DNA of 64,000 nt, taken from the NCBI GenBank assembly GCA_963664325.2, contig CAXXDQ010000003.1, forward strand, positions 512,001-576,000, read 5' to 3'. Each line of letters opens with the position of its first letter. The stretch's first letter is position 1. This stretch comes from Desulfomonilia bacterium. Its GTDB lineage: Bacteria > Desulfobacterota > Desulfomonilia > UBA1062. A program made the position numbers and the translations under genes. The notes under the pieces are model-generated. The model was not told the DNA's origin and did not search any database. It saw nothing but the letters and a program-made list of their open reading frames with translations. Below, one piece after another: positions 28,036 through 59,106 of the stretch.

Positions 28036-31000
28036 ATGATGGAATATATTTATTCAAAAGATTCAATCAGCAAAGGGCCTGAACTTAATATTCTTCCTTA
28101 TTTTGCAAACACCCTTCCTGAGCTTTTGAAAAATGCAATTACAGTAGGCGTCAACAAGGGGATTATTTTTGTTGAAGCCGACGGGTCCGAAACGACATTA
28201 CTCTATAAAGACCTGCTGGAAGAAGCGTCCAGAGTATTAACCGGTCTCAGGTCAAACGGGATGAAGGCCGGGGACAATGTTGTGATACAGGTTGACAATG
28301 ACAGGTATTTCCTTCTGGCCTTTTGGGGCATTGTTCTGGGAGGCGGTATACCTGTTCCACTTGCAATTCCAAACAGTTTTCCAATAAGTGAAGGTTCTGA
28401 AAAGGTTGCGAGCGTCTGTTCTCTGCTCAGGAATGCTTTTATTGTTACGGACCAGGACCCGTCGGGATACAGGGATGTTGTTTCAAGGGCAGTGCTGATT
28501 GTCAGCGATCTTGCAGACAATGAACCTGACAGGAATTATAATGATCCTGATCCTGATGATATCGCATATGTGCAGTTTTCTTCGGGATCGACAGGCGATG
28601 CCAAGGGGGTTATACTCACTCACAGGAATATACTTGTCAACATTTATGCAATAATAGAGGCATCAGGCAATCCGGAACAGCTAAGAATAAGAGACGAGCT
28701 GCTGGGCAAACCGTTAGAGGCGACTGACATACCATACAGCACATGCAGCTGGCTGCCCTATTCCCATGATATGGGGCTGATCGGTTTTCATCTTACACCG
28801 ATGGCCGGAAGCATCATGCAGATCAAGATGTCCACGACCACTTTTGTTATCAATCCGACATTAAACCTTCTTCTGATTGACAAATACAGGATAACACAGA
28901 TACCGAGTCCCAATTTCGGTCTGCTGTGGATGCTGTACATGATTAAAGATGAAAGCATAAAGGGCATCGACCTTTCATGTGTTGACGCTCTTTTTAACGG
29001 TGCTGAACCTATTTCCCCGATGGCTGTGAGGCTGTTTATCGACAGGTTCAGGCAATACGGATTCAACCCCAAGTCCATGTTCCCCGTTTACGGAATGGCC
29101 GAAGCGTCACTATTGGTTACCGCACCGCCAAGGAATAGTGAAACTTTATATCACATGCTGGACAGGGGATCCTTCACTGAAAATCATGTTGCCGTTGATG
29201 CAAAGACAGACCTTCCAGTCATCGAATTTGTTGATGAAGGTTACCCTGCAATGGGGATGGAGCTGAGAATTGTCGATAGCGAAGATAATGTGGTCAATGA
29301 AGGAAAAGTTGGTCATATACAAATCAAGGGACCGAATGTAACCAGCGGCTATTACAAAAAAGAAGAATTGAATTCGGAGCTGTTTTGTGACGGATGGCTC
29401 AGGACCGGAGACCTTGGATTCCTTTTAAATGATAGGCTGACTGTTACGGGCCGTCATAAGGATGTTATATTTGTCAACGGTCAAAATTATTATTCACATG
29501 ACATCGAAGAAGAGCTTCAGCAGTTACCATTTGTGGGTTTTAAAAATATGGCTGTTTGCGGGGTTACGGACCATGACAGAGGCACTGAAAATATAGTGCT
29601 TTTCATTAAGACTAAAAAATCCAAGGAAAGCCTGATTGAATTGCTTGAAAAGATTAACAAGCATCTCGGAGTAAAGATCCGGGTGGGAATTGAAGCCATT
29701 GTTCCGATGCATGACATACCAAGGACAACCAGCGGCAAGGTCCAGAGATTTATATTAAGGGAAAAATATGAGGCCGGAGGTTTCAGAGACAGGGAAATCA
29801 AAAGACTGGATCAACGTATATCTCCTTACAGTGACCAGAGGACAGAACGCAAACATTCGAATCTTTCGATCAGCAAAGGGCCTGAACTTAATATTCTTCC
29901 TTTTTTTGCAAACACCCTTCCTGAGCTTTTGAAAAATGCGATCACAGTAGGCGTCAACAAGGGGATTATTTTTGTTGAAGCCGACGGGTCCGAAACGATA
30001 TTACTCTATAAAGACCTGCTGGAAGAAGCGTCCAGAGTATTAACCGGTCTCAGGTCAAACGGGATGAAGGCCGGGGACAAGGTTGTGATACAGGTTGACA
30101 ATGACAGGTATTTCCTTCTGGCCTTTTGGGGCATTGTTCTGGGAGGCGGTATACCTGTTCCACTTGCAATTCCAAACAGTTTTCCAATAAGTGAAGGTTC
30201 TGAAAAGGTTGCGAGCGTCTGTTCTCTGCTCAGGAATGCTTTTATTGTTACGGACCAGGACCCGTCGGGATACAGGGATGTTGTTTCAAGGGCAGTGCTG
30301 ATTGTCAGTGATCTTGCAGACAATGAACCTGACAGGAATTATAATGATCCTGATCCTGATGATATCGCATATGTGCAGTTTTCTTCGGGATCGACAGGCG
30401 ATGCCAAGGGGGTTATACTCACTCACAGGAATATACTTGTCAACCTTTACGCAATAGTGGAGGCATCTGGCAATCCGGAACAGCTAAGAATAAGAGACGA
30501 GCTGCTGGGCAAACCGTTAGAGGCGACTGACATACCATACAGCACATGCAGCTGGCTGCCCTATTCCCATGATATGGGGCTGATCGGTTTTCATCTTACA
30601 CCGATGGCCGGGAGCATGTTGCAGATCAAGATGTCCACGACCACTTTTGTTATCAATCCGACATTAAACCTTCTTCTGATTGACAAATACAGGATAACAC
30701 AGATACCGAGTCCCAATTTCGGTCTGCTGTGGATGCTGTACATGATTAAGGATGAAAGCATAAAGGGCATCGACCTTTCATGTATCGATATTCTTTTTAA
30801 CGGTGCTGAACCTATTTCCCCGATGGCTGTGAGGCTGTTTATCGACAGGTTCAGGCAATACGGATTCAACCCCAAGTCCATGTTCCCCGTTTACGGAATG
30901 GCCGAAGCGTCACTGATGATTACCGCACCGCCAAGGAATACTGAAACTGTGTATCATCTGCTGGACAGGGAGTCATTTTCAAAAAAGCATATAGCGGTTA

Positions 31001-34000
31001 ATGCCAAAGAGGATCTCCCTGCCATTGAGTTTGTTGACGAAGGTTATCCGGCTATGGGCATGGAGATCAGGATAGTCGATGACGATGATGACGTTGTAAA
31101 AGAGGGAACGGTCGGCCATATACAGATAAAAGGACCGAATGTAACCAGCGGCTATTACAAAAAAGAAGAATTGAATTCGGAACTGTTCTGTGACGAATGG
31201 CTCAGGACCGGGGACCTTGGTTTTCTATTAAAAGGGAGACTTACGGTCACCGGGCGTTTCAAGGATGTCATTTTCGTTAACGGCCAGAATTACTATTCCC
31301 ATGACCTGGAAGAAGAGCTTCAGCAGTTACCGTTTGTAGGTTTTAAAAATATGGCTGTTTGCGGGGTTACGGACCATGACAAGGGATCAGAATCTATCGT
31401 TCTTTTTATTAAAACAAAGAAACCCAAGGAAAATTTGATTGAATTGCTTGAAAAGATTAATAAGCATCTCGGAGCAAAGATCAGGGTGGGAATTGAAGCC
31501 ATTGTTCCGATGCATGACATACCAAGGACAACCAGCGGCAAGGTCCAGAGATTTATTTTGAGGGAACGTTATGAAGCAGGTGACTTCAGAGACAGGGAAG
31601 TCAGAAGGCTTGATCAGCGTATATATCCTGAAAATGACCGAAAAATTGAGCATGAAATCATAAAAAAGGAAGAGGTTCACTACAAAACTAAGGATATTGA
31701 TCTAAAAGGATTATTGAGTGATATGCCTTATGCCCTTGCAGAATCCAACGTGCATCAGTTTCTGCCGCATATAGTAAAAAATCTTCCTCAGGTACTTAGG
31801 ATAGCAAGCCTGATTGCGCCAGATAGCGGAATATTGCATGTGGACGAATATGGGAATGAAAATCTCCAGACTTATTCCGAGCTGATGAATTCGGCTGAAA
31901 GAGTTTTGGGCGGACTTAGGGCTAAAGGTTATAAATCAGGTGATCAGGCTATTCTTCAGATAGAACAATCAAGGAACTTTCTATCTGCTTTCTGGGGGAT
32001 AATATTAGGGGGCATAATCCCTGTTCCCCTTCCTATTCCGGGTTCATTTCCGATCAGTGAGGGAATGGAAAGAATTACAAAAGTCTGCGAAGTTCTTGAC
32101 AGGTTCTGCATAATAACCGACCAGCCTGCACAGAATTACAGATCTCTTGGAAATGTTGATCTGCTCGAAGTTAAGGAATTGCTTGAATTTGCCCCGGACG
32201 GGAATCATCACAATCCCAAACCGGATGATATAGCCTATCTCCAGTTTTCTTCCGGCTCGACAGGAGACCCCAAGGGTGTAATGCTTTCCCATTTCAATCT
32301 GGTTTATACGATTGATGCATCGGCTAAATGTGTTTTTGATGTCAGGGGGAATGATATAAGGCCGACACTTGGCTATGGTATTCATATCCTGAAGCACAAG
32401 CTGTCAATGAATGACAGGCTCGGCAGCATAGCAAAGTTTATATCTTGGGTATCCAAAGGATCTCTTGGTAAAAATATACGCTCCTCAAAAATTGGGAACG
32501 ACATTTTAGATACACTGCTAATTTTCAGCGGAAACAAAATATCCGCTTACACTGATATGCGTTTTAACGAGATAAAGATCGTAAACTGGATGCCATATTC
32601 CCATGACATGGGGCTTATCGGTTTCCATCTGGCGCCGACAATGGGCGGAATGGATCAGGTGAAACTCGAACCAAAGACATTTGTGCACAGTCCGGCGCTT
32701 TTCCTGAAGCTTATTGACAAATACAGGGCGACTCATGTTCCTTGTCCAAATTTTGCAGTTCAGTGGCTGACAACGCAGGTCAATGAAGATGATATAAAGG
32801 GTATTGATCTGTCGTGCATAAAGTGTCTTGGAAATGGTTCGGAACCTATATCACCATCGGTTTCAAGGAATTTCATACAAAAGTATGAAAAATTCGGATT
32901 TGATGAAAGGGCCATGTTCATGAGCTATGGAATGGCCGAGGCGTCACTTCAGGTTACTGCTCCTCCAGTATTTACAAAACCTGTGTTTCACAAGGTGCAC
33001 AAGGATGTTTTTATAAAAGACCAGATAATACTTCCTGTTTCATCAGATGAAGACAGCATTGAAATAACGGATCTTGGCGCTCCTGTTGCCGGTATGAAGA
33101 TAAGGATTGTTGATGACAATGATAATCTTGTCCATGAAAACACGGTAGGTCACATACAGTTGCAGGGATCCAATGTAGTCAGTGGTTATTATAAGAATGA
33201 TGCTGCAAATAAGGATCTGTTCTGTGGACCATGGCTACGTACCGGTGATATGGGATTTATGAAAAACGGCCGTATCACGTTAACGGGAAGACGCAAGGAT
33301 ATTATCTTTGTTAACGGCCAGAACCTTTATGCCCATGATATAGAAGAACAGGTAAGGCGTGTTCCCGGTATGGCATTCCGGGAATTTGCAATAACAGGAC
33401 TTAGGCATTTGGACAGCGACAGCGAGAAAGTTATTCTTTTCATAAACACTACCGAGTCAATAACATCACTTTCGTCTCTTTTATCAAGACTTAATGAAAA
33501 CCTTGTATCATCCATAGGAATCAAGATTGATTTTATCGTCCCGGTCCATGAGATACCCAGGACACCGAGTGCGAAGGTCAAGCGCTACAGTCTCAGGGAT
33601 AAGTTTGAAAAGGGCATGTATGAAACCGTTATTTCGTTAAATGATATAGTCGGGCATCTATCAGCTTCAAAGGATGAAAAGGGATTTGAACTTACTGGGG
33701 TCGAACATCGCATTATTGAAATCTGGAGGGACGTCCTCGGGGTAGATTCAATATCCAAGATTGACAACTTTTTCGACCTCGGCGGCAATTCACTTCGAGC
33801 AACAAAAGTTACATCGAGAATACGTGAGGAATTCGGCATTGAGTTGGGACTGAAGGCCGTCTTTGAAAGCCAGACGGTTGAAGCTCTGGCTAAAGTTGTT
33901 GAATCCTTGACACGAAAGGAACCGGAAGACTTTTCAAAAATCAAACCCCTTGAAAAGGCCCAGAATTATGAACTGTCCCATGCCCAAAAAAGGTTATGGC

Positions 34001-37000
34001 TACTTGATAAAGTGGTTCCAGACAGTCCGTTTTACAACATCCCAGGAGCAGTCCTTATTGACGGAATTGAACTCGATCTTGCTCTCCTTGAGAAATCTCT
34101 TCAGGCTGTTACTGACAGACACGAGACACTGAGAACGGTTTTCAGGACCATAAATGATGAGCCTGTGCAGGTCGTAAATGAGTCATACAAGATTGAAATG
34201 CCGATATATGACCTGACGCACGAAGTCGATAAGCATGAAAAGCTTCAGGCAATAATATCTGAAGAAAAGATCAGGCCGTTTGACTTGGAATCCGGCCCGC
34301 TGTTCAGGACTATGATCATAAAACTGTCAGCTACAAGTAATGTGTTCATGACAGTAATGCACCATATTATCTCTGACGGCTGGTCCATGGCCCTTCTTGT
34401 TCAGGAGGTTATAGGAAATTATTTGGGATTCAGTTCGAAGAATTCATCACCTTATCCTGAATTAGCTATACAATACAGAGATTTTGCATTCTGGCAGAAT
34501 CGCCTGCTTGAAGGAGATGGCATAAAAGAACAGGAAAAATACTGGCTTGAAAATCTATCTGGAGCTTTGCCCGTATTGAATTTGCCCACCGACAGACCCA
34601 GGCCAACCATTCAGACACAGAGAGCTGGCACTGCAAGAATCAAGATTGACCAGAAAACACTGAAGGGCATCAAGGAACTAGCAAGGAAAGAAGATGTAAC
34701 AATGTTCATGATGACACTGGCCCTTTTCGATGTGATGCTTTCAAAGCTTTCTGGGCAGGAAGATATCATAATAGGCTCCCCGATCGCCGGCCGGAACAAT
34801 ACTCAAATTGAACCGTTAATAGGATTCTTTGTAAATGTCCTGCCTATGAGGATTAACCTTTCCGGAAACCCGAATCTTTCAGAACTTCTGAGGCGTGTAA
34901 AGGAAATGTCAATAGGCGCCTACGCGAACCAGGAATATCCTTTTGACAGGCTTGTTGAGGTTATTAATCCGGTGAGGGATCTAAGCAGGACTCCTATTTT
35001 CGACATTACTTTTGAATATCGTGAGGCATCGGCGAATCCTTTTGCAGGAATATCCGGGATATCAATAAAGGATGTCACCGGAGACGATCCGAATTCCAGA
35101 TTTGACATGAGTGTTACGGGTTATGAGGAAGCTGACGGAATAACCATGCGCTTCGAATATAATGCCGACCTATATGAAAGATCGACTATTGAGCGTTTCA
35201 TGGATTATTATAAGAATATAATCAATGATGTTATTAAAAATCCCCAAAAGACAATTTCTGAAATAGCAATACTTGGAGAGATTGAAAAGAAAAGGGTTCT
35301 TCTGGATTTCAACAATACTTCAAAAGAGTATCCTGAAGCTAAGTGTATTCATAGTATAATTTCAGAGAGAGCAAATGAATTCAAAGACAAGGTTGCATTA
35401 ATTAGCAGAGATCGTGAAATCAGCTATTCCGAGATGGAGAGATTATCAGGGAACCTGGCTGTTTATCTAATGTCACATGGAATAGGCAAAGGCGATACGG
35501 TATGTATCCTTTCTGAAAGGTGTCCAGAACTTATCATGGCAGAGATAGGAATATGGAAAACCGGTGCTATGTTCGTTCCGGTTGATCCTGATTATCCTAC
35601 TGAGCGTATCCGATACATGATTGAAGATTCAGGAGCGAAGATGTTCCTGACAACATCTGAGATGCTGCAGTATGCACCGAAAGGTGAAATTGAACTTGCA
35701 TTAATTAATACAGATTCAAAGGTCTGGGAATCAGATAGTATAATGGACAAATATAATCAAGACCCTGATTCCATAGCTTATGTAATTTACACATCGGGAT
35801 CTACAGGAAGACCCAAGGGGGTCAAGATACGACACAGAAATTTGGCAAATTTTATACACCTTAATCTTGATTTATATGGTATCAATTATCAGGATAGATC
35901 GTCAAACTTGGCAGGTGTTGCTTTTGATGCATCTGCGTGGGAGATATGGCCATATCTGTGTGCAGGTGCGATAATTGTATGCCTTGACAAGAATCTTGGC
36001 AAGATGATGCCAGAGGATCTTGCTGAATGGTTCTCAAAATACAATATAACACGTTCATTTATACCAACAAAATTTGCTGAAATATTTGTCAGTGAACATT
36101 TCGAAGGGTTGACTTTAAAAACACTATTTACAGGTGGTGACAGGTTAAGCTTTGTTCACTCTGGTGGCAGCTACGAGTTGATTAACGCATACGGTCCTAC
36201 TGAAACAACAGTTATTGCATCGGCCTGTGATGTAACTCACTGGGACAACACCAGAGGCGTACCTCCAATTGGAAAACCTTTGCCGAATATAAAAATATAC
36301 ATTCTTGACAAATATTTGAATCCAGTTCCCGTAGGTGTTACTGGCCAAATTTACATTGGTGGTGCTGGGGTAGGTGCAGGATATGTTAATGACCCCGAGA
36401 AGACGAAGCAGGTATTCATACCAGACCCATTTACAGAAGGAGCAGAGCTAATCTATGCAACCGGTGACTTGGCGCGATGGCTCCCGGATGGCAATATAGA
36501 TTTTATAGGAAGAAACGATTTTCAGGTAGAAATAAGAGGGTATAGAGTTGAACTTGGAGAGATTGAAACTGTTTTATCTTCCTATACAGGAATAAAAGAA
36601 TGTGTTGTTATAGATAAAAAGGATGATGAAGGACAAATCAGACTTGTAGGTTTCTATGTTTCTGATTTTGTCCTCAATGAAAATGAAATCAAGGATTATC
36701 TTCGTGAACACCTGCCACCTTACTTGATACCTTCAAGAATTATCTATCTCGAAGCATTTCCTCTTACTTCTAACGGAAAGTTAGACAGGACGGCTCTGTC
36801 GTCAATGATTGACGTGACTGTCGATGCTCTTAGGGAGTTTATTGAACCGTCTACACAAACAGAGAAGGAACTTGAAGCATTCTGGAGGGTGTCCCTCGGA
36901 GTAGAAAAAATAAGTGTTAATGATAATTTCTTTGATATAGGAGGAAATTCATTAAGGGCGACGAGGATAGTTTCCTGGGCAAGAGAAAAATATCGTATCG

Positions 37001-40000
37001 AACTGCCGCTAAAAGCCATATTTGAAAACCAGACCCTTGGTCAGCTGGCTTCAGAAATTGATAACATTAAATCGTTTGGATTAAAGTCCGTACTGCCGGC
37101 AATTGAAAATATTATTCCGGCTGAATATTATGAAGTCTCACATGCTCAGAAAAGACTTTGGTATATAGACAAGATTGTTCCGAACAGCCCATTCTATAAT
37201 ATTCCAGGCGCCGTATTGATTGAAAATACACCTATTGACTTGGAATTATTAAAAGAGGCGTTTCAGGCTGTTGTAGATCGGCATGAAAGCTTAAGGACAA
37301 CAATTGTAACGATAAATGAAAAACCGTTCCAGAAGATATCAGATAAGATGGATCTCGATATCGAAATCTTCGATTATCGTAACAGCAATGAAAAAGATGT
37401 TAAGCTTCGTGAATTGATTGAAAAAGAAAAAACTAAGCCATTCAGCATCGAAAATGGTCCATTGCTAAGGATAAGCGTGGTGAGGCTTACGGAATTGTCC
37501 AATGCGCTGATACTCAATATGCACCATATAATTTCTGATGGATGGTCCATGGGTATTCTGGTCAGAGAGGCTTTTGCGAATTACATAGCATTAGCCCAGG
37601 GAAAATCATCTCCTTTTGAAGAACTTAAAATTCAGTATAAGGACTTTGCTGACTGGCAGAACAAACTTCTTGAAGGTGAAGAGATTAAAGAACAGGAGAA
37701 ATTCTGGGTCGATAAGTTGTCCGGTGAACTTCCTGTCCTTAACATGCCTACAGACAGGGTTAGGCCTGCCGTGCAGACGCAAAACGGTGCAGTAAAACGC
37801 TGCAATCTTTCCCTGGATGAATCTGTTATGCTCAGGAATTCTGCAAAAGATCTAAATATAACGCCATTTATGCTCACACTCTCAATGTTCTTGGTATTCT
37901 TGAACAGAATTACAGCGCAAGAGGATATTATTGTTGGAACACCTGTTGCAAACAGGAATAATGCACAAATAGAACCGCTCATAGGATTTTTTGTAAACAT
38001 GCTTCCCATTCGTGTTGATATTTCAGGTAACCCTTCATTTAGTGAGTTTGCAAAGATTGTAAAACAGACATGCATTATGGCCTATGCGCATCAGGACTAT
38101 CCTTTTGATAAGCTTGTTGAAGCGATAAATCCAGCAAGAGACCTCAGCAGGAATCCTATATTTGATGTTGCTTTCGATTTTCACGAAATATCGGCAAATC
38201 CTATTGCGAGTGTAAATCTTGGAGGTATGAAGTTAAAGGATATAACCGGAGATGATACAACTTCAAAGTTCGACTTTTTAGTGACTGGATATGAATCGGA
38301 TGAAGGTGTAACATTTACTTTTGGTTACAATACAGATCTTTTCAATGACAATACTGTTGAACGCTTGATAACATATTTTAAGAATCTTCTAGAAGACGTC
38401 ATTGTCAGTCCGAACAAGAAATTATCTGAGTTCTCTTTAATTGATGATCATGAAACAAATCGGATACTTTATGGGTTTAATGATACCGTCAGAGAATATG
38501 ACAAAGAAAAACCTGTTCACGTTCTATTTGAAGAAATTGCCAAACGATTCCCTGACAAAGAAGCTCTTGTGTTTGAAAACAAAAGCATGAGTTACAGGGA
38601 TCTCAATGAACGTTCCAATCGAATCGCAAAATATCTCAGAGATAACGGAGTGGAAAAGGGCACATGCGTGGCAGTAATGGTAAAGCGCTCTTTCGATATG
38701 CTAGTAGCTGTTCTGGGCATACTGAAAGCGGGTGGAGCCTATGTCCCGATCGAATCGGAATATCCTATGGAAAGAATCCAGTATATGTTGACTGACATTA
38801 AGACCCCTGTTGTTGTTGTCAATGAATCATTGATTGGAAGCCTTAAAGGATATGAAGGCCATGTGCTTTGTCTTGAAAGATTCTGGGATGATTTTACATC
38901 AGAAGGAAACTCGGATCTTCCCAATGTTAATACTTGCGATGACCTTGCGTACATAATCTATACCTCGGGTTCAGCGGGAACTCCTAAAGGTGTCATGGTA
39001 CCTCATGTCGGAATTACGCGCCTTGTCAAGAATACGAATTATGCCGAGATCACTGATGCTGACAGATTCCTGCAGGTCGCAACCATTGCATTTGATGCCG
39101 CTACAATGGAGTTCTGGGGTCCTCTTTTGAATGGAGGAACACTTTTCCTCGTCTCCAGTGAAGATTCGGTGAATCCAGACCGGATTGGCGAATTAATTAT
39201 AAAACATGATATTTCCATTCTTTTTATTACTACGGTCATGTTTAATCAACTTGTAGATATAAGGCCAGATGCGCTTGCCAATCTGAAGAGTCTTCTAACA
39301 GGTGGAGAGATGCAGTCTATTACACACATGAGGAAGGCATTCAGCCAGGTTCGTCCCGGAGTTCTTACACATGTTTACGGACCGACTGAAAACACTACTT
39401 ATTCAACTTATTACAAAGTTACGGCAATACCGGAAGACATAACCGGTGTACCTATTGGCTATCCTCTGGCTAATTCAACTGCATATATACTAGACAAGTA
39501 CCATAATCCGGTCCCGATCGGCATTCCGGGTGAGATATATGTAGGAGGTCTTGGACTGGCTAAGGGGTATCTCAATGACCCTGAAAAAACTTCGGGTGTT
39601 TTTATCCCCAACCCCCTTGCCGGAGTGTCTGAAAATATCCTTTATAAAACAGGCGATATCGGTAAATGGCTTCCGGACGGTGCTATTGAAATAATGGGAC
39701 GCATCGATCAACAGGTGAAAATCAGAGGTCACAGAATTGAACTTGGGGAAATTGAAACCACAATAAGGAAGCATGAACTGGTCAGGGACACAATAGTTGT
39801 AGTTAAAGACATGGGCTTGAACAGCAAGATGCTTCTCGCCTATTATGCAAGTGACAAGGAAATACCGACAGATGTTTTCAGGACCTTCTTGCGGGAGAGT
39901 CTTCCGGATTATATGGTGCCGAACATATTCATCAGACTGGATTCCCTTCCTCTTAAGAAAAGCGGCAAAGTGGATAAAGCTGCCTTGCCTGAGCCCAAGG

Positions 40001-41628
40001 GATTGCGTCCTGAAATGGCTACCGAATATGTCGAACCGAGAAATGAGATAGAGGAAATAATTGCCAGGGCTTGGCAAGAAGTCCTCGGAATTGACAAAAT
40101 AGGTATATTTGACAACTTCTTTGATATAGGGGGAGATTCAATAGTAAGTCTTCAAGTCGTAAGCCGTCTGAACCGTAAAGGATTCAATCTTCAACCTAGA
40201 GATATCCTGCAATATCAGACAATCGCGGAACTCGGATCCGTTATTGTATTTACAAAAGGGATTGAAGCCGAACAGGGTGCTGTAACAGGCAGTTCAACTC
40301 TGACGCCTATTCAGCGCTGGTTCTTCTCGCAAAAACTTCATAATGAAAATCATTTCAATCAGGCATTGCTTTTTTCTTCCCAGTCAAGACTTGACGAGGA
40401 TGCACTTAAAAAAGCTTTCCAAGCTCTAATTGATCATCATGATGTATTGCGTTCGCGTTTTGTGGACAGCAGTATTCAGGAATTTATTGCTTTGGGAGAA
40501 GAAGTAGCATTCAGAGTTGTAACGCTTGAAAACGATGCGCTTATGGGTGAAGAGATACTGAAATTGCAGGCATCGCTGAATATAAATGAAGGTCCAATAT
40601 TCGCTGCCGGACTTCTTCATGCAAGTGCTGAAGACTATTTAGTTGTTGCCTGCCATCACCTTGTAGTTGATGGAGTATCATGGAGAATTTTGATGGAAGA
40701 TCTGATGACTGGCTACTTCCAGGTAATCGGAGGAGGTAATGTTGAACTACCTGAAAAATCGACATCATTCAAAGAGTGGGCAAACAAGCTTTCTGAATAT
40801 GCGCTTGAGAGTCAAGTAGCTGCAGAAGAAATATGGTGGAAGGGTATACTCAGTGATGAATTACCGCAAATCTCAATAGAGCAGGATTTAGGTCCGAATA
40901 ATATAGCATCTGTCTCTGCAGCAACAGTCGAGTTAAATGAAAAAGAAACATCACAACTTCTGAAAGAGGCACACCATGCATACAATACTGATGTAATCGA
41001 TCTCCTTATCGTTGCTTTGAGTGAATCGATATCATTATGGACGGGTTCTGACAAGGTTGCTTTTGTTCTTGAAGGGCATGGCCGGGAAAATGTTATTGAA
41101 GATATTGATGTTTCAAGGACCGTGGGCTGGTTTACAACCATGTATCCGGTTGTACTGAATGTATTTCCAGACATGAAAGATAAGATAAAGAATATCAAAG
41201 AGACACTTCACAGGATACCTCATAAAGGGTTTAATTATGGGATATTGAGATACCTTAATTCGATTGAACTGCCGTTCACCAGTGACATCAGCTTTAATTA
41301 CCTCGGGCAGTTATCAAATCCTACCTTTGACGGATTCAAACTCGCAACAACCGACGTATCAGGAATTATGGATGTAAGTAACTTGAGGGCCAATCTGATT
41401 GATATCGTAGCGATGGTCGTAAATGGAAAGCTCAGAGTTAACTTTATTTACAGCCAGAACAAGTTTACGATGTTCACAATCAATTCTCTAGCCATTTCAT
41501 TCAAGAAGAGATTGTCCGAAATAATAGCACATTGTATGGATCCATCAAATTTTGATGTCACGCCAAGCGATTTCGAGCTTATTGATCTTGGTCAGGAGCA
41601 ATTAGATAAATTGATAAATTTCGAATAA
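28036..41628 (+). CDS. NRPS-A: FAAL-FAAL-FAAL-T-C-A(Leu-like)-T-C-A(Ile/Val-like)-T-E
   Basis: Three QFSSGSTGD.KG / W.PYSHDMGLIG / YGMAE / RTGD.GF / PRT.S.KV domains. T motifs GGNSL, GGNSL, GGDSI; two C domains (HHIISDGWS); E domain HHLVVDGVSW; C-terminal TPSDF COM helix. Confidence 0.95.
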   Translation: MMEYIYSKDSISKGPELNILPYFANTLPELLKNAITVGVNKGIIFVEADGSETTLLYKDLLEEASRVLTGLRSNGMKAGDNVVIQVDNDRYFLLAFWGIVLGGGIPVPLAIPNSFPISEGSEKVASVCSLLRNAFIVTDQDPSGYRDVVSRAVLIVSDLADNEPDRNYNDPDPDDIAYVQFSSGSTGDAKGVILTHRNILVNIYAIIEASGNPEQLRIRDELLGKPLEATDIPYSTCSWLPYSHDMGLIGFHLTPMAGSIMQIKMSTTTFVINPTLNLLLIDKYRITQIPSPNFGLLWMLYMIKDESIKGIDLSCVDALFNGAEPISPMAVRLFIDRFRQYGFNPKSMFPVYGMAEASLLVTAPPRNSETLYHMLDRGSFTENHVAVDAKTDLPVIEFVDEGYPAMGMELRIVDSEDNVVNEGKVGHIQIKGPNVTSGYYKKEELNSELFCDGWLRTGDLGFLLNDRLTVTGRHKDVIFVNGQNYYSHDIEEELQQLPFVGFKNMAVCGVTDHDRGTENIVLFIKTKKSKESLIELLEKINKHLGVKIRVGIEAIVPMHDIPRTTSGKVQRFILREKYEAGGFRDREIKRLDQRISPYSDQRTERKHSNLSISKGPELNILPFFANTLPELLKNAITVGVNKGIIFVEADGSETILLYKDLLEEASRVLTGLRSNGMKAGDKVVIQVDNDRYFLLAFWGIVLGGGIPVPLAIPNSFPISEGSEKVASVCSLLRNAFIVTDQDPSGYRDVVSRAVLIVSDLADNEPDRNYNDPDPDDIAYVQFSSGSTGDAKGVILTHRNILVNLYAIVEASGNPEQLRIRDELLGKPLEATDIPYSTCSWLPYSHDMGLIGFHLTPMAGSMLQIKMSTTTFVINPTLNLLLIDKYRITQIPSPNFGLLWMLYMIKDESIKGIDLSCIDILFNGAEPISPMAVRLFIDRFRQYGFNPKSMFPVYGMAEASLMITAPPRNTETVYHLLDRESFSKKHIAVNAKEDLPAIEFVDEGYPAMGMEIRIVDDDDDVVKEGTVGHIQIKGPNVTSGYYKKEELNSELFCDEWLRTGDLGFLLKGRLTVTGRFKDVIFVNGQNYYSHDLEEELQQLPFVGFKNMAVCGVTDHDKGSESIVLFIKTKKPKENLIELLEKINKHLGAKIRVGIEAIVPMHDIPRTTSGKVQRFILRERYEAGDFRDREVRRLDQRIYPENDRKIEHEIIKKEEVHYKTKDIDLKGLLSDMPYALAESNVHQFLPHIVKNLPQVLRIASLIAPDSGILHVDEYGNENLQTYSELMNSAERVLGGLRAKGYKSGDQAILQIEQSRNFLSAFWGIILGGIIPVPLPIPGSFPISEGMERITKVCEVLDRFCIITDQPAQNYRSLGNVDLLEVKELLEFAPDGNHHNPKPDDIAYLQFSSGSTGDPKGVMLSHFNLVYTIDASAKCVFDVRGNDIRPTLGYGIHILKHKLSMNDRLGSIAKFISWVSKGSLGKNIRSSKIGNDILDTLLIFSGNKISAYTDMRFNEIKIVNWMPYSHDMGLIGFHLAPTMGGMDQVKLEPKTFVHSPALFLKLIDKYRATHVPCPNFAVQWLTTQVNEDDIKGIDLSCIKCLGNGSEPISPSVSRNFIQKYEKFGFDERAMFMSYGMAEASLQVTAPPVFTKPVFHKVHKDVFIKDQIILPVSSDEDSIEITDLGAPVAGMKIRIVDDNDNLVHENTVGHIQLQGSNVVSGYYKNDAANKDLFCGPWLRTGDMGFMKNGRITLTGRRKDIIFVNGQNLYAHDIEEQVRRVPGMAFREFAITGLRHLDSDSEKVILFINTTESITSLSSLLSRLNENLVSSIGIKIDFIVPVHEIPRTPSAKVKRYSLRDKFEKGMYETVISLNDIVGHLSASKDEKGFELTGVEHRIIEIWRDVLGVDSISKIDNFFDLGGNSLRATKVTSRIREEFGIELGLKAVFESQTVEALAKVVESLTRKEPEDFSKIKPLEKAQNYELSHAQKRLWLLDKVVPDSPFYNIPGAVLIDGIELDLALLEKSLQAVTDRHETLRTVFRTINDEPVQVVNESYKIEMPIYDLTHEVDKHEKLQAIISEEKIRPFDLESGPLFRTMIIKLSATSNVFMTVMHHIISDGWSMALLVQEVIGNYLGFSSKNSSPYPELAIQYRDFAFWQNRLLEGDGIKEQEKYWLENLSGALPVLNLPTDRPRPTIQTQRAGTARIKIDQKTLKGIKELARKEDVTMFMMTLALFDVMLSKLSGQEDIIIGSPIAGRNNTQIEPLIGFFVNVLPMRINLSGNPNLSELLRRVKEMSIGAYANQEYPFDRLVEVINPVRDLSRTPIFDITFEYREASANPFAGISGISIKDVTGDDPNSRFDMSVTGYEEADGITMRFEYNADLYERSTIERFMDYYKNIINDVIKNPQKTISEIAILGEIEKKRVLLDFNNTSKEYPEAKCIHSIISERANEFKDKVALISRDREISYSEMERLSGNLAVYLMSHGIGKGDTVCILSERCPELIMAEIGIWKTGAMFVPVDPDYPTERIRYMIEDSGAKMFLTTSEMLQYAPKGEIELALINTDSKVWESDSIMDKYNQDPDSIAYVIYTSGSTGRPKGVKIRHRNLANFIHLNLDLYGINYQDRSSNLAGVAFDASAWEIWPYLCAGAIIVCLDKNLGKMMPEDLAEWFSKYNITRSFIPTKFAEIFVSEHFEGLTLKTLFTGGDRLSFVHSGGSYELINAYGPTETTVIASACDVTHWDNTRGVPPIGKPLPNIKIYILDKYLNPVPVGVTGQIYIGGAGVGAGYVNDPEKTKQVFIPDPFTEGAELIYATGDLARWLPDGNIDFIGRNDFQVEIRGYRVELGEIETVLSSYTGIKECVVIDKKDDEGQIRLVGFYVSDFVLNENEIKDYLREHLPPYLIPSRIIYLEAFPLTSNGKLDRTALSSMIDVTVDALREFIEPSTQTEKELEAFWRVSLGVEKISVNDNFFDIGGNSLRATRIVSWAREKYRIELPLKAIFENQTLGQLASEIDNIKSFGLKSVLPAIENIIPAEYYEVSHAQKRLWYIDKIVPNSPFYNIPGAVLIENTPIDLELLKEAFQAVVDRHESLRTTIVTINEKPFQKISDKMDLDIEIFDYRNSNEKDVKLRELIEKEKTKPFSIENGPLLRISVVRLTELSNALILNMHHIISDGWSMGILVREAFANYIALAQGKSSPFEELKIQYKDFADWQNKLLEGEEIKEQEKFWVDKLSGELPVLNMPTDRVRPAVQTQNGAVKRCNLSLDESVMLRNSAKDLNITPFMLTLSMFLVFLNRITAQEDIIVGTPVANRNNAQIEPLIGFFVNMLPIRVDISGNPSFSEFAKIVKQTCIMAYAHQDYPFDKLVEAINPARDLSRNPIFDVAFDFHEISANPIASVNLGGMKLKDITGDDTTSKFDFLVTGYESDEGVTFTFGYNTDLFNDNTVERLITYFKNLLEDVIVSPNKKLSEFSLIDDHETNRILYGFNDTVREYDKEKPVHVLFEEIAKRFPDKEALVFENKSMSYRDLNERSNRIAKYLRDNGVEKGTCVAVMVKRSFDMLVAVLGILKAGGAYVPIESEYPMERIQYMLTDIKTPVVVVNESLIGSLKGYEGHVLCLERFWDDFTSEGNSDLPNVNTCDDLAYIIYTSGSAGTPKGVMVPHVGITRLVKNTNYAEITDADRFLQVATIAFDAATMEFWGPLLNGGTLFLVSSEDSVNPDRIGELIIKHDISILFITTVMFNQLVDIRPDALANLKSLLTGGEMQSITHMRKAFSQVRPGVLTHVYGPTENTTYSTYYKVTAIPEDITGVPIGYPLANSTAYILDKYHNPVPIGIPGEIYVGGLGLAKGYLNDPEKTSGVFIPNPLAGVSENILYKTGDIGKWLPDGAIEIMGRIDQQVKIRGHRIELGEIETTIRKHELVRDTIVVVKDMGLNSKMLLAYYASDKEIPTDVFRTFLRESLPDYMVPNIFIRLDSLPLKKSGKVDKAALPEPKGLRPEMATEYVEPRNEIEEIIARAWQEVLGIDKIGIFDNFFDIGGDSIVSLQVVSRLNRKGFNLQPRDILQYQTIAELGSVIVFTKGIEAEQGAVTGSSTLTPIQRWFFSQKLHNENHFNQALLFSSQSRLDEDALKKAFQALIDHHDVLRSRFVDSSIQEFIALGEEVAFRVVTLENDALMGEEILKLQASLNINEGPIFAAGLLHASAEDYLVVACHHLVVDGVSWRILMEDLMTGYFQVIGGGNVELPEKSTSFKEWANKLSEYALESQVAAEEIWWKGILSDELPQISIEQDLGPNNIASVSAATVELNEKETSQLLKEAHHAYNTDVIDLLIVALSESISLWTGSDKVAFVLEGHGRENVIEDIDVSRTVGWFTTMYPVVLNVFPDMKDKIKNIKETLHRIPHKGFNYGILRYLNSIELPFTSDISFNYLGQLSNPTFDGFKLATTDVSGIMDVSNLRANLIDIVAMVVNGKLRVNFIYSQNKFTMFTINSLAISFKKRLSEIIAHCMDPSNFDVTPSDFELIDLGQEQLDKLINFE
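28062..31623 (+). repeat. 1803-bp-period tandem duplication encoding FAAL1 and FAAL2
   Basis: ATCAGCAAAGGGCCTGAAC at 28066 and 29869. The antisense ORFs 28203/30006 and 28788/30591 recur at the same 1803 offset. Near-identical over the first ~1 kb, with diverged patches afterwards. Confidence 0.95.
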
Positions 41629-41635
41629 GGAGTTC

Positions 41636-44600
41636 ATGATGTCATATTTGACAAAGCAGAATATTGCCGACATTTATCCTCTGTCCCCGATGCAGCAGGG
41701 AATGCTTTTCCATACCCTTTATGACCAAGACTCACCTGCATATTTCGAACAGTTCTTCTGTATCATTGAAGGAGAGCTTGTATATAAACATATAGAAAGT
41801 GCCTGGAACCACCTTATCGATGAACATCCGGTTTTCAGGACTGTTTTTAATTATAAGGAATTGAGCCAGCCTGTTCAGATTGTTTTGAAGAAAAGACCAA
41901 TTAACATTAATGTGTACGATTTTAAAGATTACAGCGGTGAGGAACAGAAAAAGAAGATTGATGAATTTATGGAAGCTGACAGGTCGGAACGTTTTGACCT
42001 GTCAAAAGGTCCCCTCCTTCGAATAAATATATTCGAACTTGCCGCAGGCAAAATTTTCTTTCTCTGGAGCTATCACCATATTCTGCTTGACGGATGGTGC
42101 CTTGGCCTTATCCTTATCGATTTTTTTACAACATATCTGGCTTTAAAAGATAACAAGCCATTACCCCACTTCAGCAGGCCCCCGTTCAAGAACTATATTG
42201 CATGGCTGAATAAACAGGACAAAGAAAAACCGAAGGCATTTTGGACTGAACTTCTTAAAGGATTTAGTGCGACCACGCCGCTTCCCTGGGATTTTACCCC
42301 TAAAGATCGCAAATTGAAGGCGGACAAAAGAGAAATCACACTTAACAGTGAAGCTACAAAAAAAATAGAAGAATTTGCTCGTATGCAAAGGATTACATTG
42401 AGTACACTTTTGCAAGCCGCATGGGGTGTATTACTTGGAAGGTACAGCGGAAATGATGATGTCGTATTCGGTGCTACGGTTTCCGGAAGGCCTGCAACTT
42501 TGCCCGGGGCCGATCAGATGGTCGGAATATTCATTAATAGCCTGCCTCTTAGGGTTAAACTTGGCGGTATCGTTGAGGACATGCTTAGAAACCTTCAGGA
42601 TCAGTCTTCAAAAGTCCAGGAATACGGGTATTCATTTCTTCCCGATGTTAAGGCGGCAAGTCAGGTTTCAATAAAAGACTCTCTTTTCGACAGCCTTGTC
42701 GTGTTTGAGAATTACCCCATTGACCCCAAGCTGCTGACGGCTACGGAAGGAATAAAGGTATCGGAAATAAGCGGGTTTGAGCTTACAAACTTTGATTTAT
42801 GCCTGGTTGTTGCACCTGGCGAGGAAATGAAACTTTCCCTTACCTATATGATTGACCGTTTCCGCCCTGAAACAATAGATAAGATGCTGAAGCATCTCTC
42901 GAACATACTTACAAGCATGTCGGATAATCCGCGCATTCAGGTATCGAAAATAAAGATGTTGGATGATAAGGGAAAGAGACATGCTGTTGAAAAGCTTTAA
43001 TGATACAAGCGTACCTTTCCCTGACAGGAAATGCATACAGGAATTTATAGAAGATACGGTTGATAAATATCCGGAACGCATTGCTGTCAGTAGTTTTTAA
43101 CGGCAGTCTTACATACAAAGAACTTGATGAACGTTCAAATTCACTGGCACATTATCTGAAAGAAAAGGGAGTAGGACCGGGGGAAAACAGCCGGTATATT
43201 CATTGACCGTTCGATTGATATGATCGTTGCTGTACTAGGGATAATAAAAGCTGGTGGCGCATATGTACCACTTGAAACTGAATATCCCAAGGCAAGGCTT
43301 GAATACATGTTGTTTGACTGTGATGCGGGTATAATAATAACCCATTCTTCATTAAGTGGCAGGCTCCCTTCATACGGTGGAGAAATCCTTAATCTGGATG
43401 AGTCGAGAAAAGAGATATCCGACAGACCTAAAACAAGGCCATCTCTTGTTAACAAGAGCTCAGATCTTGTTTATTTGATTTATACATCGGGATCAACCGG
43501 AAACCCCAAAGGTATTCAGATTGAACATCGCGGACTTGTTAATTATATTATATGGGCTCTCGATTATTACAAGGCGTATGATCACGGGTCATTTCCATTG
43601 TATACGTCAATGTCTTTCGACCTTACAGTTACAAGCATGTTCGTACCTCTTATTGCCGGTGCATGTATTAATATTATGCAACCGGGCTTGGACCCGACAA
43701 CACTGGTTGAAAAGGTGATAACTAGTGAAATCGACATCGCCAAGCTTACCCCTGCCCATCTGGAAATTGCAGATAAGCTTACAGCCTCGGGTGTTAAAAT
43801 GAACCCAAGACTGAAACGTATGATCTTAGGCGGTGAAGCACTTTCAGCAAAGACATCCCGTTCGATGCAGGAAAGGTTTCCAGGTCTTATAATCGACAAC
43901 GAATATGGACCGGCAGAGACGGTAGTCGGTTGCATTGTGTATACATTTGAAAACCTGCCTGAAGAATTAGCATCTGTGCCCATAGGCAAACCGATTGCTA
44001 ATACGATAATTTATTTACTTGATAAAGATATGGAATTAGTTCCTGTCGGTGTTCCCGGTGAGATATACATTTCAAGCCCCGGGGTTGCAAGGGGTTATTT
44101 AAACAATGATGATGTGACGGCAAGGAGTTTTCTACCGAATCCATTCATTGAGGGTGACAAGATTTACCGTACAGGTGATCTTGGTCGCTGGAGGTATGAT
44201 GGGGTAATGGAATACCTCGGAAGGGTGGATTATCAGATAAAAATTCGGGGATACAGAATAGAGCTTGGTGAGATTGAATCAGCATTGCTAAAGCATCCGT
44301 CAATCCATGATTGTGTGGTGACTGATAAAACCAGGTCAGGGGACGACAGATATATTGCAGGATACTATGTTTCTGATACTGAATTGGATGAAACCGAATT
44401 AAAAGATTTTCTCAAGGGTTTTCTTCCCGAATACATGGTGCCTTCCTATATCGTAAGGCTTGAATCGTTGCCGCTTTCTCCAAACGGCAAGGTAGACCGC
44501 AATGCCCTTCCTGATATTGATGCATGGCAAATCAGGGTCTCAGCTGAATATGTTGCACCGAGAAATGATGTTGAGGAAAAAATAGCCGTTATTTTCCGGG

Positions 44601-47600
44601 ATATCCTGGGTATTCCAAAAATTGGAGTTTATGACAATTTCTTTGAACTTGGGGGGCATTCCTTAAAGGCTACTCAGGCAGTTTTCAGGATACGAAAAGA
44701 GCTCGGAATAGACATGCCGTTAAGGACCATATTCGATGAACCAACTATTGATAAGATTGCACATGCAGCTGGTGTATCTTCACATTTGCGGCCGATAGAA
44801 ATCCTTGAAGAAGCACCAAGTTATGTTTTATCCCAGGCACAACAGAGGTTGTGGTTCCTTGACAGGCTGATTCCGGATTCTGCATCATACAATATTCACG
44901 GTGATGTCCTTCTTGAGGGAAAACTGGATATCGATGCTGTAACAAGAGCTTTGCAGCTGATTGTTGACAGGCATGAAAGCCTTCGGACAACTTTCAGCTT
45001 ACAAGATGACATGCCTGTCCAGATAATTGCAAAGAACCTGGAAGTCATACTTCCCGTTGAGGATGTTAATGAGAATGATCTTGATGGAATATTAAAATCG
45101 GAGCCCTGCATTCCTTTCAAGCTTGATACAGGTCCTCTGTTCAGGCTCAGACTCTTAAGGCTTGCAGCACAGAAGCATATCCTGATGCTAACAATGCATC
45201 ATATCATATCAGACGGCTGGTCCATGGGGATATTGATGAGAGAAGCTGCTGCCGCCTACTCGGCATATGCCAGAGGTGGAAAGCCTGAATTGCCTAATTT
45301 AAGGGTTCAATACAAGGATTTTGCTATCTGGCAGAATTCTCTACTTGATGACGGATCACTTAGGTCACAAGAAACATACTGGCTTGACCGGTTAAAGTCT
45401 CCTCTGCCGATGCTTGATCTTCCAACAGACAGACCAAGGCCGCCAATACAGACGACATCTGGAGCTACATTCCGGTTTAAAGGAGACCCAGAGCTTAATA
45501 AAAAAATTCGTGAACTGCTCAATGAGCGCGATATAACCCTGAATATGCTTTTGCTTTCAGCATATGCAACTATGCTGAATAGGCTTTCAAATCAGGAAGA
45601 TATCATTGTCGGTTCCCCAATTGCCGGGAGGAATCATCCTGATTTGGAAAACATTATCGGATTCTTTGTAAATATGATAGCGCTGAGGCTGGATTTCTCC
45701 CGGGACATTTCAGCATCCGAACTCCTCAAACAGGTTAAACAGGTGTGCCTCGATGCATACTCAAATCAGGAATACCCGTTTAACAAAATAATAGATATGA
45801 TCAACCCTATAAGGGATACCAGCCGTTCACCAATCTTCAATACTATGTTTGTCCTTCAGAACGCCTCGGAAACAGTAACTGAAGCAAGAGTCGGGGATAT
45901 GCTGTTCAAAGATATCACAAAAGAAATGGGCATATCAAAGTTTGACCTGACCCTTTATGCCTTCGAGGCATCAGACTCCATCGACTACTTTTTTGAATAC
46001 AACACCGACCTTTTTAACAGCGATACTGTCGAAAGGTTTGCAGGTCACTTTTCAAATATCTTGAGGCAGATGGTCATGGAAACAGAAAAACCTCTTTCTT
46101 CATATCATGTAATGAGCAGGGAAGAGGAAAAACTCGTGATAGAGGTTTTTAACGACACGGATGTCAGTTATCCAAATGAGAAATGCGTCTTTCAGTTTTT
46201 TGAAGAACAGTCAGAAAAAACACCTGATAGAATTGCGGTAACATTTGCTGACCAAAGCCTCACTTATAAAGTGCTTAATGAAAAGACGAACCAGCTTGCT
46301 CGATACCTGAGGGAGGTTGGAGTCAAGGCCGAGACAATGGTAACCATCATGGTTGAACGCTCAATTGAGATGGAAATTGCCCTCATCGGGATTCTTAAGG
46401 CCGGCGGGGCGTATGTTCCTATCGGTACGGAATATCCCGATGCGAGAATAGATTATATATTGGAAGATACAAATTCTCCGGTTGTCTTAACCCAGAAAAA
46501 ATATGCTGAAAAATTTGCCGGTAAGGACATAAAAATCATTTGTCTAGATTCCAATTGGCCAGATATTGCAGAAAAGGACGTTGCGAACCTTGAGCCTCTA
46601 AGCGGTGCTGATAATTTGGCTTATGTACTTTATACATCAGGCTCAACTGGTGTTCCCAAAGGGGTTGCATGTATTCACAAGGGACTGACGAATCGTCTTG
46701 TCTGGATGCAATCTGCATACGAGTTGGGAGAAGACGATGTTGTTCTTCAGAAGACGCCATATACATTTGATGTCTCGGGATGGGAGTTTCACTGGCCGAT
46801 GATGTTTGGTGCAAGACTTCATTTCCTGAGGCCTGGTGGTGAAAAAGATCCGCTTCATATCCTGGAAGTCATTAATGAGCGCAAGATTACAACACTTCAT
46901 TTTGTCCCTTCAATGCTTGGAGTATTTCTTCAAGTGCTGGATGAGGAAAACAGCAAAACGTTAACATCATTGAGAAGGGTTATATGTTCGGGCGAAGCCC
47001 TGATGGGTTATCACCGTGACTTGTTCTTCAGATACTTGAACTGTGAACTTCACAACTTGTACGGGCCTACCGAGGCTTCAATAGACGTCACTTGGTATGA
47101 ATGCAAAAGAGAAGACACCTCAAGTACTGTACCAATAGGAAAGCCGATTGCCAACACAAGGATTTACATACTTGACAGGAATCTGAGCCCTGTTCCCGTA
47201 GGTGTTGCCGGAGAGGTTTACCTGGCTGGCATACAGCTTGCCCGCGGATATGTAAACAAACCAGAAAAAACAGCTGAAGCCTTCGTAACATTTTCGATAT
47301 TCAAAGACACAAGGCTATACAAGACGGGTGACCTTGGGCGATGGATGACTGATGGCAACATTGACTATCTTGGTAGGATAGACCATCAGGTCAAGATAAG
47401 GGGAAACCGTATCGAGCTAGGTGAGGTGGAATCAGCACTTTCAAAATTTGAGGGGATACATGACTGTGTCGTCATTGATTATGATGACCCTACCGGCAAG
47501 TATCTTGTAGGCTATTACGTATCAGATGCGGAAATTCCGGTAGGTGACTTAAGGACATTCCTTATTGATGCACTCCCTGAATATATGGTGCCCACACGAT

Positions 47601-56778: not shown

Positions 56779-56805
56779 AATAATTACATGATAGGGAGTA
56801 GTGAA

Positions 56806-58257: not shown

Positions 58258-58290
58258 TATCTTAAGGCATGTTAAGGGAGAAATACACGT

Positions 58291-59034: not shown

Positions 59035-59106
59035 GGGTTTTATTGGAATGCAACAGGATTATCTATGGTTTTATAATATTAGAAAATTAAACTGTAACGG
59101 GGGCTT

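Follow-up and report, generated by a model that had tools for sequence, protein, structure and literature searches.

A nonribosomal peptide synthetase loading region with three FAAL-like ligases before one carrier, one state of a family with one to four ligases

Can several acid-activating domains that stand in series serve a single carrier domain? This question is raised by the opening of a nonribosomal peptide synthetase (NRPS) gene from an uncultured Desulfomonilia bacterium of predatory type (GTDB lineage Bacteria; Desulfobacterota; Desulfomonilia; UBA1062). The gene lies in a stretch of 64,000 nucleotides, referred to here as the window (assembly GCA_963664325.2, contig CAXXDQ010000003.1, positions 512,001 to 576,000 of the forward strand), and all coordinates below are positions within it. 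A single open reading frame (ORF), 28036..41628 on the + strand, encodes NRPS-A (4530 aa), which opens with three complete fatty acyl-AMP ligase (FAAL)-like adenylating domains. The first two, a1 and a2, are paralogues of one class (a-type). The third, b, belongs to another class (b-type) and precedes the first carrier, or thiolation (T), domain, T1. The sequence comparisons described below point, with slightly better than even confidence, to a genuine starter module in which several acid-activating domains would serve one carrier in cis, with two specificity classes and not three. The features of the loading region are as follows.

28036..29838, + strand: a1, FAAL-like ligase, aa 1-601; Pfam AMP-binding 5.9e-44; predicted A10 lysine K568
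28063..29133, + strand: homogenised tract of a1, codons 10-366; a2 partner 29866-30936; synonymous divergence (dS) 0.048
29839..31671, + strand: a2, FAAL-like ligase and paralogue of a1, aa 602-1212; intact motifs; predicted A10 lysine K1169
31672..33687, + strand: b, FAAL-like ligase, aa 1213-1884; Pfam AMP-binding 4.1e-46; predicted A10 lysine K1847
32335..32571 (approximate), + strand: b-specific insert of about 74 aa between A3 and A4, from the alignment
33691..33930, + strand: T1, sole carrier domain of the loading region; Pfam PP-binding; FFDLGGNSL at aa 1916

When NRPS-A is scanned with Pfam as four in-frame pieces, AMP-binding is matched once each in aa 1-605, 606-1215 and 1216-1888. 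PP-binding is not matched in any of these three ligase pieces, and the first PP-binding match begins 4 residues into the fourth piece. The phmmer domain map is similar and places a1 at aa 1-600, a2 at 602-1205, b at 1216-1880 and T1 at 1886-1965, followed by condensation (C), adenylation (A), T and epimerase-type (E) domains in the order C-A-T-C-A-T-E. The linkers from ligase to ligase are much too short for a hidden carrier domain. The GGNSL motif of T1 begins at aa 1916, which is nt 33781, and its serine is encoded at 33790-33792. The domain after T1, C1, carries HHIISDGWS, and the ligase-carrier-C order of an NRPS lipoinitiation or loading module is therefore present. All three ligases are members of the ANL superfamily by their AMP-binding (PF00501) scores of 150.9 (a1), 150.6 (a2) and 158 bits (b), against a cut-off of 29.9. 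Across the three ligases, QFSSGSTGDAKG is found twice and QFSSGSTGDPKG once, YGMAE and RTGD three times each, PRTTSGKV twice and PRTPSAKV once. The first-pass annotation of this DNA had described three ligases in series with no carrier between them, a first GGNSL at about 33781, and a P-loop, YGMAE, RTGD and A10 lysine in each. The series is borne out by both the Pfam scan and the phmmer map, the GGNSL motif begins at exactly nt 33781, and all of the quoted motifs were found. That annotation also considered that two of the three ligases might be inactive; judged by motifs they are not, as A3 to A10 are intact in a1, a2 and b.

The three domains resemble FAALs in family models, motif spacing and folds. 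The top NCBIfam model is the fatty acyl-AMP ligase PRK09192, with 302-334 bits across the ligases (a1, 330), which is below the curated cut-off of 600. Among PDB sequences, the two top matches are a keto-acid A domain (6ulw) and McyG, followed by the E. coli and Legionella FAALs, and a2 aligns over its full length with both FAAL structures. An AlphaFold2 model of b and T1 has a mean pLDDT (predicted local distance difference test) of 84.3, and its fold matches are the same PDB set plus the olefin-synthase FAAL, FadD32 and FadD23. The motifs are called A3 to A10 here in what we take to be the usual naming. A stretch of 74 aa separates A5 from A6 in each of the three ligases, versus 49-51 aa in two canonical A domains of the same cluster that were caught by pattern. 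The alignment is continuous through this stretch with 3pbk and 3kxw and is gapped in McyG; presumably this is where the FAAL-specific insertion of the N-terminal domain lies, between A5 and A6. The motifs A3, A4, A5, A6, A7 and A8 and the A10 lysine are kept in all aligned domains (18 a-type, 12 b-type) except b of P0007. A fatty acid as substrate, as implied in the first-pass annotation, is plausible, the substrate class itself not being readable from sequence. Chain length is likewise described as not predictable with confidence in the available text of a 2025 FAAL review (PMC11837247).

The b-specific insert breaks the Pfam AMP-binding match of b into two stretches. It is found in every b-type domain, including the stand-alone b-T proteins described below, and it is therefore not a device that holds the a-type domains. 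At the same site the a-type domains have 18 more residues than single FAALs. In the AlphaFold2 model, the insert forms four helices (model residues 230-285). The fold search with the b and T1 model returned whole-domain FAAL matches only and none for the 74-aa insert.

The domains a1 and a2 are 95% identical in DNA and 91% in protein. The base differences (about 5%) are clustered, and the divergence is uneven: the first 1100 nt are near-identical and nt 1100-1600 of each copy are far more diverged. By the Nei-Gojobori method, codons 367-539 have a dS of 1.38 and a nonsynonymous divergence (dN) of 0.084. The resulting dN/dS of 0.06 in this middle part indicates purifying selection on both copies. 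The long identical stretches might come from a mis-assembled repeat, in which case the true gene would have two ligases, as in the a-b-T genes that are the only form in G007 and G008 of the same genus. This is very improbable. Synonymous sites are saturated across the middle third of the two copies (dS 1.38), and the duplication is therefore not an assembly slip. A 175-nt Logan contig spans 29724-29898 (three runs, one sample), crossing from the last part of a1 to the first part of a2. In a second contig, the letters that lead into the shared repeat (at 29865) correspond to the 5' flank of a1 and its start codon, so that both contexts of the repeat are found. In all three runs, k-mers common to a1 and a2 are about twice as deep as copy-specific ones; in run X14, unique parts have a depth of about 7 and parts common to both copies a depth of 12.6-15. 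Between 89 and 97% of the sampled words of 29100-31000 are present in the Logan contigs. These contigs do not suggest fewer domains, a possibility raised in the first-pass annotation. The three runs may be the source of the assembly itself and are counted as consistency and not as independent support. Soil, wetland, peat and permafrost runs (X1-X13) contain 4-9% of the sampled words and are given no weight, and raw-read run X18, of the same species label, has no read on 29100-31000 and does not bear on the question. An independent line of support is another species of the genus (L002, which is G009), where the syntenic locus has the same a-a-b-T layout. The two-ligase locus L001 and the three-ligase locus L002 have the same genes flanking the cluster (a Cys/Met pyridoxal phosphate enzyme, an MFS transporter and an HhH-GPD protein). 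In addition to G009, at least six further relatives have at least two a-type domains.

The b domain is 45% identical to a1 and a2. In phylogenetic trees, the a-type and b-type domains form two separate clades with 37-51% mutual identity. Within the a-type clade, the relationship of a1 to a2 depends on the part of the domain considered. Over aa 10-366, the two window copies are 97% identical and differ at 11 residues, and the corresponding copies of L002 are 73% identical there. Over aa 367-540, a1 of the window is 90-91% identical to L2_a1 and to the single a-type domains of P4 and P5; a2 of the window (82% identical to L2_a2) and L2_a2 branch basal to this group. In the maximum-likelihood tree of a-type domains, P3_a1 groups with P7_a1 and P3_a2 with P7_a2 (100% bootstrap support each), and L5_a2 groups with P123_a2 (99%). 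These pairings by position indicate that, in at least two lineages, the a copies are more ancient than their host species. Support is 100% for the clade of the window's genus; the deep nodes have 32-45% support, at which independent duplications are not countable. The simplest reading would be that one copy was lost in some species after an ancient duplication and that, in the window, the N-terminal core underwent recent gene conversion. The first-pass annotation had proposed three ligases of different specificity. Here that proposal gives way to two classes, because a1 and a2 are 97% identical over the acyl-pocket core, with a dS of 0.048.

Two possible specificity clues were considered and set aside. 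Six of the 11 differences between a1 and a2 cluster in three short segments, one following A4, one preceding NGAEP and one following A5. These segments were picked after the differences had been seen, and they are not counted as evidence of different specificity. An aromatic residue before NGAEP in a-type domains, versus a small one in b-type domains, was dropped as a gate for chain length, as the Legionella FAAL has the same F-N.

A search with aa 1-1890 of NRPS-A against 5.8 billion proteins (those of 2491-7928 aa) returned seven close relatives. Further matches are at most 43% identical and have a single FAAL-T, and the next-best database matches to the loading region are single FAAL-T-C-A-T proteins. 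The domain maps of the window and of the related sequences fall into the following states.

b-T-C-A-T..., no a-type domain: P0124
b-T alone: P0125, L007, L008, L032
b-T with a class I/II aminotransferase-fold domain: P0126
a-b-T: P0004 (the same as L001), P0005, P0006, P0008, P0122
a-a-b-T: the window, L002, P0003 (the same as L004), L005
a-a-b-T with degenerate b: P0007, G019, G020
a-a-a-b-T, four ligases: P0002

As read from these maps, b-T is the predicted core unit, to which zero, one, two or three a-type domains are fused upstream, and this series is a conserved family trait. The architecture is not a one-off, as the emphasis of the first-pass annotation might suggest; the window is one state of a series with one to four ligases. 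The record titles of the relatives are uncultured Bacteriovoracaceae, "Deltaproteobacteria" and Thermodesulfobacteriota metagenome-assembled genomes, and by taxonomy they belong to the window's own family. Within that family, 11 of 52 genomes, representing 6 of 14 genera, have the b-type domain (E-value at most 1e-60). In the window's genus, a-b-T is the layout of two species (G007, G008) and a-a-b-T that of two others (G000, G009). In an even phylum sample of 401 genomes, the b-type domain is found in three (E-value at most 1e-150), all of which are in the window's family, and the b query has no match in the other 394 genomes of the sample.

The b query was also searched by HMMER against all 1.84 billion cluster representatives, and the best 150 matches were listed. 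Nine of these 150 are of this lineage (P0005, P0122, P0008, P0123, P0124, P0125, P0126, P0128 and P0177). Five lineage matches span the query from end to end, insert included. P0123, a protein cut at its C-terminus, matches query residues 4-450 through the insert, and the matches of P0125 and P0126 also run through the insert, from query residue 25-26 onward. The other two, P0128 and P0177, are fragmentary, at 57-58% identity. In the other 141 of the 150 matches, the best stretch begins at query residue 287-302, past the insert. The b-type lineage is rare. The a-type search covered proteins of 30-2490 aa; in it, no protein other than P0122 and P0123 is more than 44% identical, and both of them also contain b.

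The b-type domain occurs in further settings. Stand-alone b-T proteins of 772-775 aa (L007, L008, L032), present in the other three species of the genus (G007, G008, G009), are 50% identical to b of the window. Their genes, for example L008:9893-12211, lie directly after an MFS_1 transporter gene and outside NRPS clusters. In the window's own genome, the b query (E-value at most 1e-30) recovered no stand-alone b-T protein. P0126 (1199 aa) is a b-type ligase and carrier fused to Aminotran_1_2 (Pfam, 1.5e-51). P0347, from the a-type search, is of similar make-up and is named 8-amino-7-oxononanoate synthase in its source. We take the aminotransferase-fold domain of P0126 to be of the kind that condenses acyl-carriers with amino acids. 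The aminotransferase-fold fusion and the MFS neighbour hint at fatty acids for b. In four more distant sequences (P0129, P0134, P0010 and P0017), a FAAL-like domain is found within modules, in the order C, FAAL-like domain, about 500 aa, T. Ketoreductase-type Pfam families are recorded for P0010 and P0017, and the layout of the four would be that of a keto-acid module. These in-module domains indicate that the FAAL-like clade is not confined to starter positions.

The evidence that bears most directly on which ligase serves T1 comes from three sequences, P0007, G019 (L033, G019:C176) and G020 (L034, G020:C17), which are 93-97% identical to one another and have a degenerate b in common. In this b (aa 1215-1890 of P0007), the P-loop is changed to SKRDSRG, HDMGL to HEMGL and YGMAEAS to YDLAEAC, and A8 is altered. 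A deletion of about 100 aa also takes out the C-terminal subdomain and the A10 lysine. In the same sequences, a1 and a2 have all motifs intact and T1 keeps FFDLGGNS[LI], with L in two of the three and I in G019. Between G019 and G020, dN/dS is 0.18-0.22 and does not set the dead b apart from a1, a2, T1, C1 or the A domain that follows. Purifying selection throughout the gene implies that it is in use and that the dead b is kept as a body. With b dead and a1 and a2 intact, only the a-type ligases are left in cis for T1. From these forms, taken together with the b-T proteins that have no a-type domain, we infer that either class can load T1. In the window, where both classes are intact, both most likely load T1. 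The dead b is also of note in its own right as a conserved pseudo-enzyme: its dN/dS of 0.18 reflects the same selection as that on the neighbouring active domains.

The starter module would then operate as follows. The core is b-T, a FAAL-like ligase with its own carrier, which also occurs free-standing and, in a related NRPS, as the only loader. A second FAAL-like class, the a-type, would have diverged earlier and is found fused upstream of b only. Each ligase would make an acyl-adenylate and hand the acyl group to the phosphopantetheine of T1, and C1 would couple whatever acyl group sits on T1 to the first amino acid. At least two N-acyl product series would be expected, one from a-type substrates and one from b-type substrates. 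The acyl-binding cores of a1 and a2 are nearly the same, and these domains would most likely use the same or closely similar acids. A second a copy would shift the share or rate of a-type starters and would not add a third kind. Of the in-cis multi-starter module proposed in the first-pass annotation, several ligases feeding one carrier is retained as the best-supported reading, and the three specificities are not. It is also conceivable, though doubtful, that up to four active adenylating domains, arranged as a fixed head, serve one carrier in cis and that the a copy number is an evolvable dial. This dial would set either the mix of starters or a stepwise oligo-acyl cap made without a condensation or ketosynthase domain.

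Several observations weigh against a multi-starter module. T1 would have to reach an active site two domains (about 1200 aa) upstream. The 11 residue differences between a1 and a2 over aa 10-366 mean that alternative starters leave the presence of two copies unexplained. Every NCBIfam FAAL model scores under its curated cut-off, and the substrate class of the a- and b-type ligases is not predictable from sequence. The T1 domain of the dead-b forms could instead receive its acyl group from a ligase encoded elsewhere. Finally, no a-type domain was found with its own T and without b. This last result is also predicted if the ligases are used in sequence, such that only b loads T1 and a hydroxyl or amino group on the starter carried by T1, or on the growing peptide, is acylated directly by the a-type acyl-adenylates with no condensation domain involved, the a count then giving the number of extra acyl units. 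A stand-alone A domain of the streptothricin pathway extends a carrier-bound beta-lysine chain in a comparable way. Sequential use would account for a-type domains being confined to positions upstream of b, with none that stands alone or as a-T, and for b-T that occurs without a and stays single while the a number varies from 0 to 3. It is nevertheless unlikely, since the three dead-b sequences keep a1, a2 and T1 under purifying selection when there would be no b-loaded starter for them to act on. There is also no sequence sign of a starter with a free nucleophile, and the a-type domains resemble ordinary carrier-loading FAALs along their whole length.

The dead-b forms bear equally on the proposal that only the T-adjacent ligase loads and that the upstream copies are redundant, structural or regulatory. 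The two published bacterial cases of tandem A domains, PyrG and AulA, are of this kind, with one copy non-functional or dispensable in each, and the dead b of G019, G020 and P0007, still under selection (dN/dS 0.18), likewise demonstrates that a ligase body can be kept non-catalytically. In those same sequences, however, it is the T-proximal ligase that has lost catalysis and the distal ones that are intact. All catalytic motifs are present in 18 of 18 aligned a-type domains, the old part of a1 and a2 has a dN/dS of 0.06, and the paralogues are kept across species splits; spare upstream copies are thus judged improbable, if marginally less so than sequential use. The large distance along the chain from a1 to T1 would be accommodated if the a-type ligases loaded another carrier in trans (a free ACP, or acyl carrier protein, or another T domain) for a second lipidation or a side-chain acylation, with b alone serving T1. 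This arrangement would leave T1 and C1 of the dead-b forms without a loader in cis, yet both are conserved. No free carrier gene is present among the annotated window ORFs of at least 150 aa, smaller ACP genes not having been searched for. Loading in trans is given little credence. The preferred reading remains loading of T1 in cis by both classes, with a and b presumed to differ in substrate.

FAAL-carrier loading units with a FAAL-like ligase beside a carrier, followed by C, are described in the available text of the 2025 FAAL review (PMC11837247), and b-T is exactly such a unit. The family differs in the 2-4 ligases that stand before one carrier in its larger members; the forms given in that text are stand-alone, didomain and multidomain. 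In the same text, "tandem" and "multiple FAAL" do not appear and two FAAL-like domains are mentioned only for the eukaryotic DIP2C. The available main text of the 2026 FAALPred survey of 33,222 genomes (PMC12820801) does not contain "tandem", "two FAAL", "multiple FAAL" or "consecutive", and its supplements could list such cases. In full-text literature on tandem, consecutive or sequential adenylation or FAAL domains, PyrG, AulA and DIP2/CPS1 were found. In PyrG (pyridomycin) and AulA (auriculamide), the order is A1-A2, ketoreductase (KR) and peptidyl carrier protein, and, as in the window, consecutive adenylating domains stand before one carrier. Consecutive A domains are called "a very rare feature" by Braga et al., in the portion of that paper available. 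As far as the accessible accounts go, PyrG and AulA have an A1 that is missing essential residues or can be dispensed with, act on alpha-keto acids and contain a KR, whereas the window has three intact ligases and no KR. The degenerate copy is the first one in PyrG and AulA and the T-proximal one in G019, G020 and P0007. A dead or dispensable adenylating domain, as in PyrG and AulA, is found only in these three relatives and not in the window. Eukaryotic DIP2 and fungal CPS1 have a tandem FAAL-like pair, as here, but with a DMAP1-binding domain and without a carrier or an NRPS (PMC8460268, available text). According to that text (Patil et al., PMC8460268), the DIP2/CPS1 architecture is not seen in prokaryotes. 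The literature found agrees with the first-pass annotation that an example with three in series has not been described; the tandem A domains in print are those of PyrG and AulA, with one copy dead in each. The window and its relatives are apparently an undescribed but conserved variant of the FAAL-initiated NRPS loading module, with one to four ligases per carrier. A literature search that combined Bacteriovoracaceae with nonribosomal peptides gave one unrelated paper and nothing on the subject.

In puwainaphycin-type pathways, alternative starters are supplied by separate FAALs. In NocH, a single FAAL-ACP loads two different acids, according to the available text of the FAAL review (PMC11837247). 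As far as these descriptions extend, both resemble the window in having more than one acyl starter per assembly line, and there the starters come from separate proteins with their own ACP or from one promiscuous ligase. In the window, the variety would instead arise in cis, from several ligases on the same chain as a single carrier.

In assembly-line enzymology, each carrier is assumed to have one activating domain, and the two published exceptions have a dead copy. The natural series from b-T to a-a-a-b-T, together with a-a-dead b-T, makes the reach of the carrier and competition between ligases testable. If the ligases do compete for T1, fusion of an extra FAAL would be a simple way to diversify or steer lipid tails, which strongly affect lipopeptide activity. 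The copy-number dial, if it exists in either form, would be a loading logic undescribed for NRPS or polyketide synthase lines. The family also marks a conserved cluster of lipopeptide-aldehyde type in uncultured bacteria whose records have Bacteriovoracaceae titles.

The genes upstream of 28036 are housekeeping genes, and the cluster is therefore taken to start at that position. Beyond the loading region, it contains the following features.

33961..41628, + strand: remainder of NRPS-A, C-A-T-C-A-T-E; phmmer domain map, HHxxxDG motifs
41636..43000, + strand: free-standing condensation domain protein, 454 aa; Pfam Condensation 1.4e-111
43220..52459, + strand: NRPS-B, A-T-C-A-T-C-A-T-E; Pfam, domain map
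52477..56778, + strand: NRPS-C, C-A-T-R, with terminal reductase (R); Pfam NAD_binding_4 4.7e-43; domain map
56788..60855, + strand: probable tailoring or editing genes (short-chain dehydrogenase/reductase (SDR)-ATC_hydrolase protein, type II thioesterase, beta-lactamase-fold protein); Pfam

The six amino-acid modules behind the acyl starter and the terminal reductase define the line as a six-residue lipopeptide synthetase, and the product predicted from this module order is probably an N-acyl hexapeptide aldehyde or alcohol. The last domain of NRPS-A contains HHLVVDGVSW, which we take to be an epimerase-type motif. The C domain of module 3 (41636-43000) is a separate protein, encoded between the terminal E of NRPS-A and the A domain with which NRPS-B opens. 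This split-off protein is retained in L001, L002, L004 and L005 with 50-54% identity.

The genes at 56788..60855 are counted in the cluster by position and strand only. Right after the reductase-terminated NRPS, the first of them (56788-58257) encodes an SDR fused with ATC_hydrolase, of the L-2-amino-thiazoline-4-carboxylic acid hydrolase family, which may process the released aldehyde. The final cluster gene (59107-60855) encodes a 582-aa beta-lactamase-fold protein. Its Pfam match covers residues 45-525 against a profile of 329 positions, which indicates large inserts, and the product could be a peptidase or a self-resistance enzyme. Two MFS ORFs of the window are short for this family: 25824-26630 (268 aa; MFS_1, positions 28-203) and 61662-62345, with 61292-61765 (227 aa; MFS_2, positions 1-199). 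Both may be truncated or frameshifted genes.

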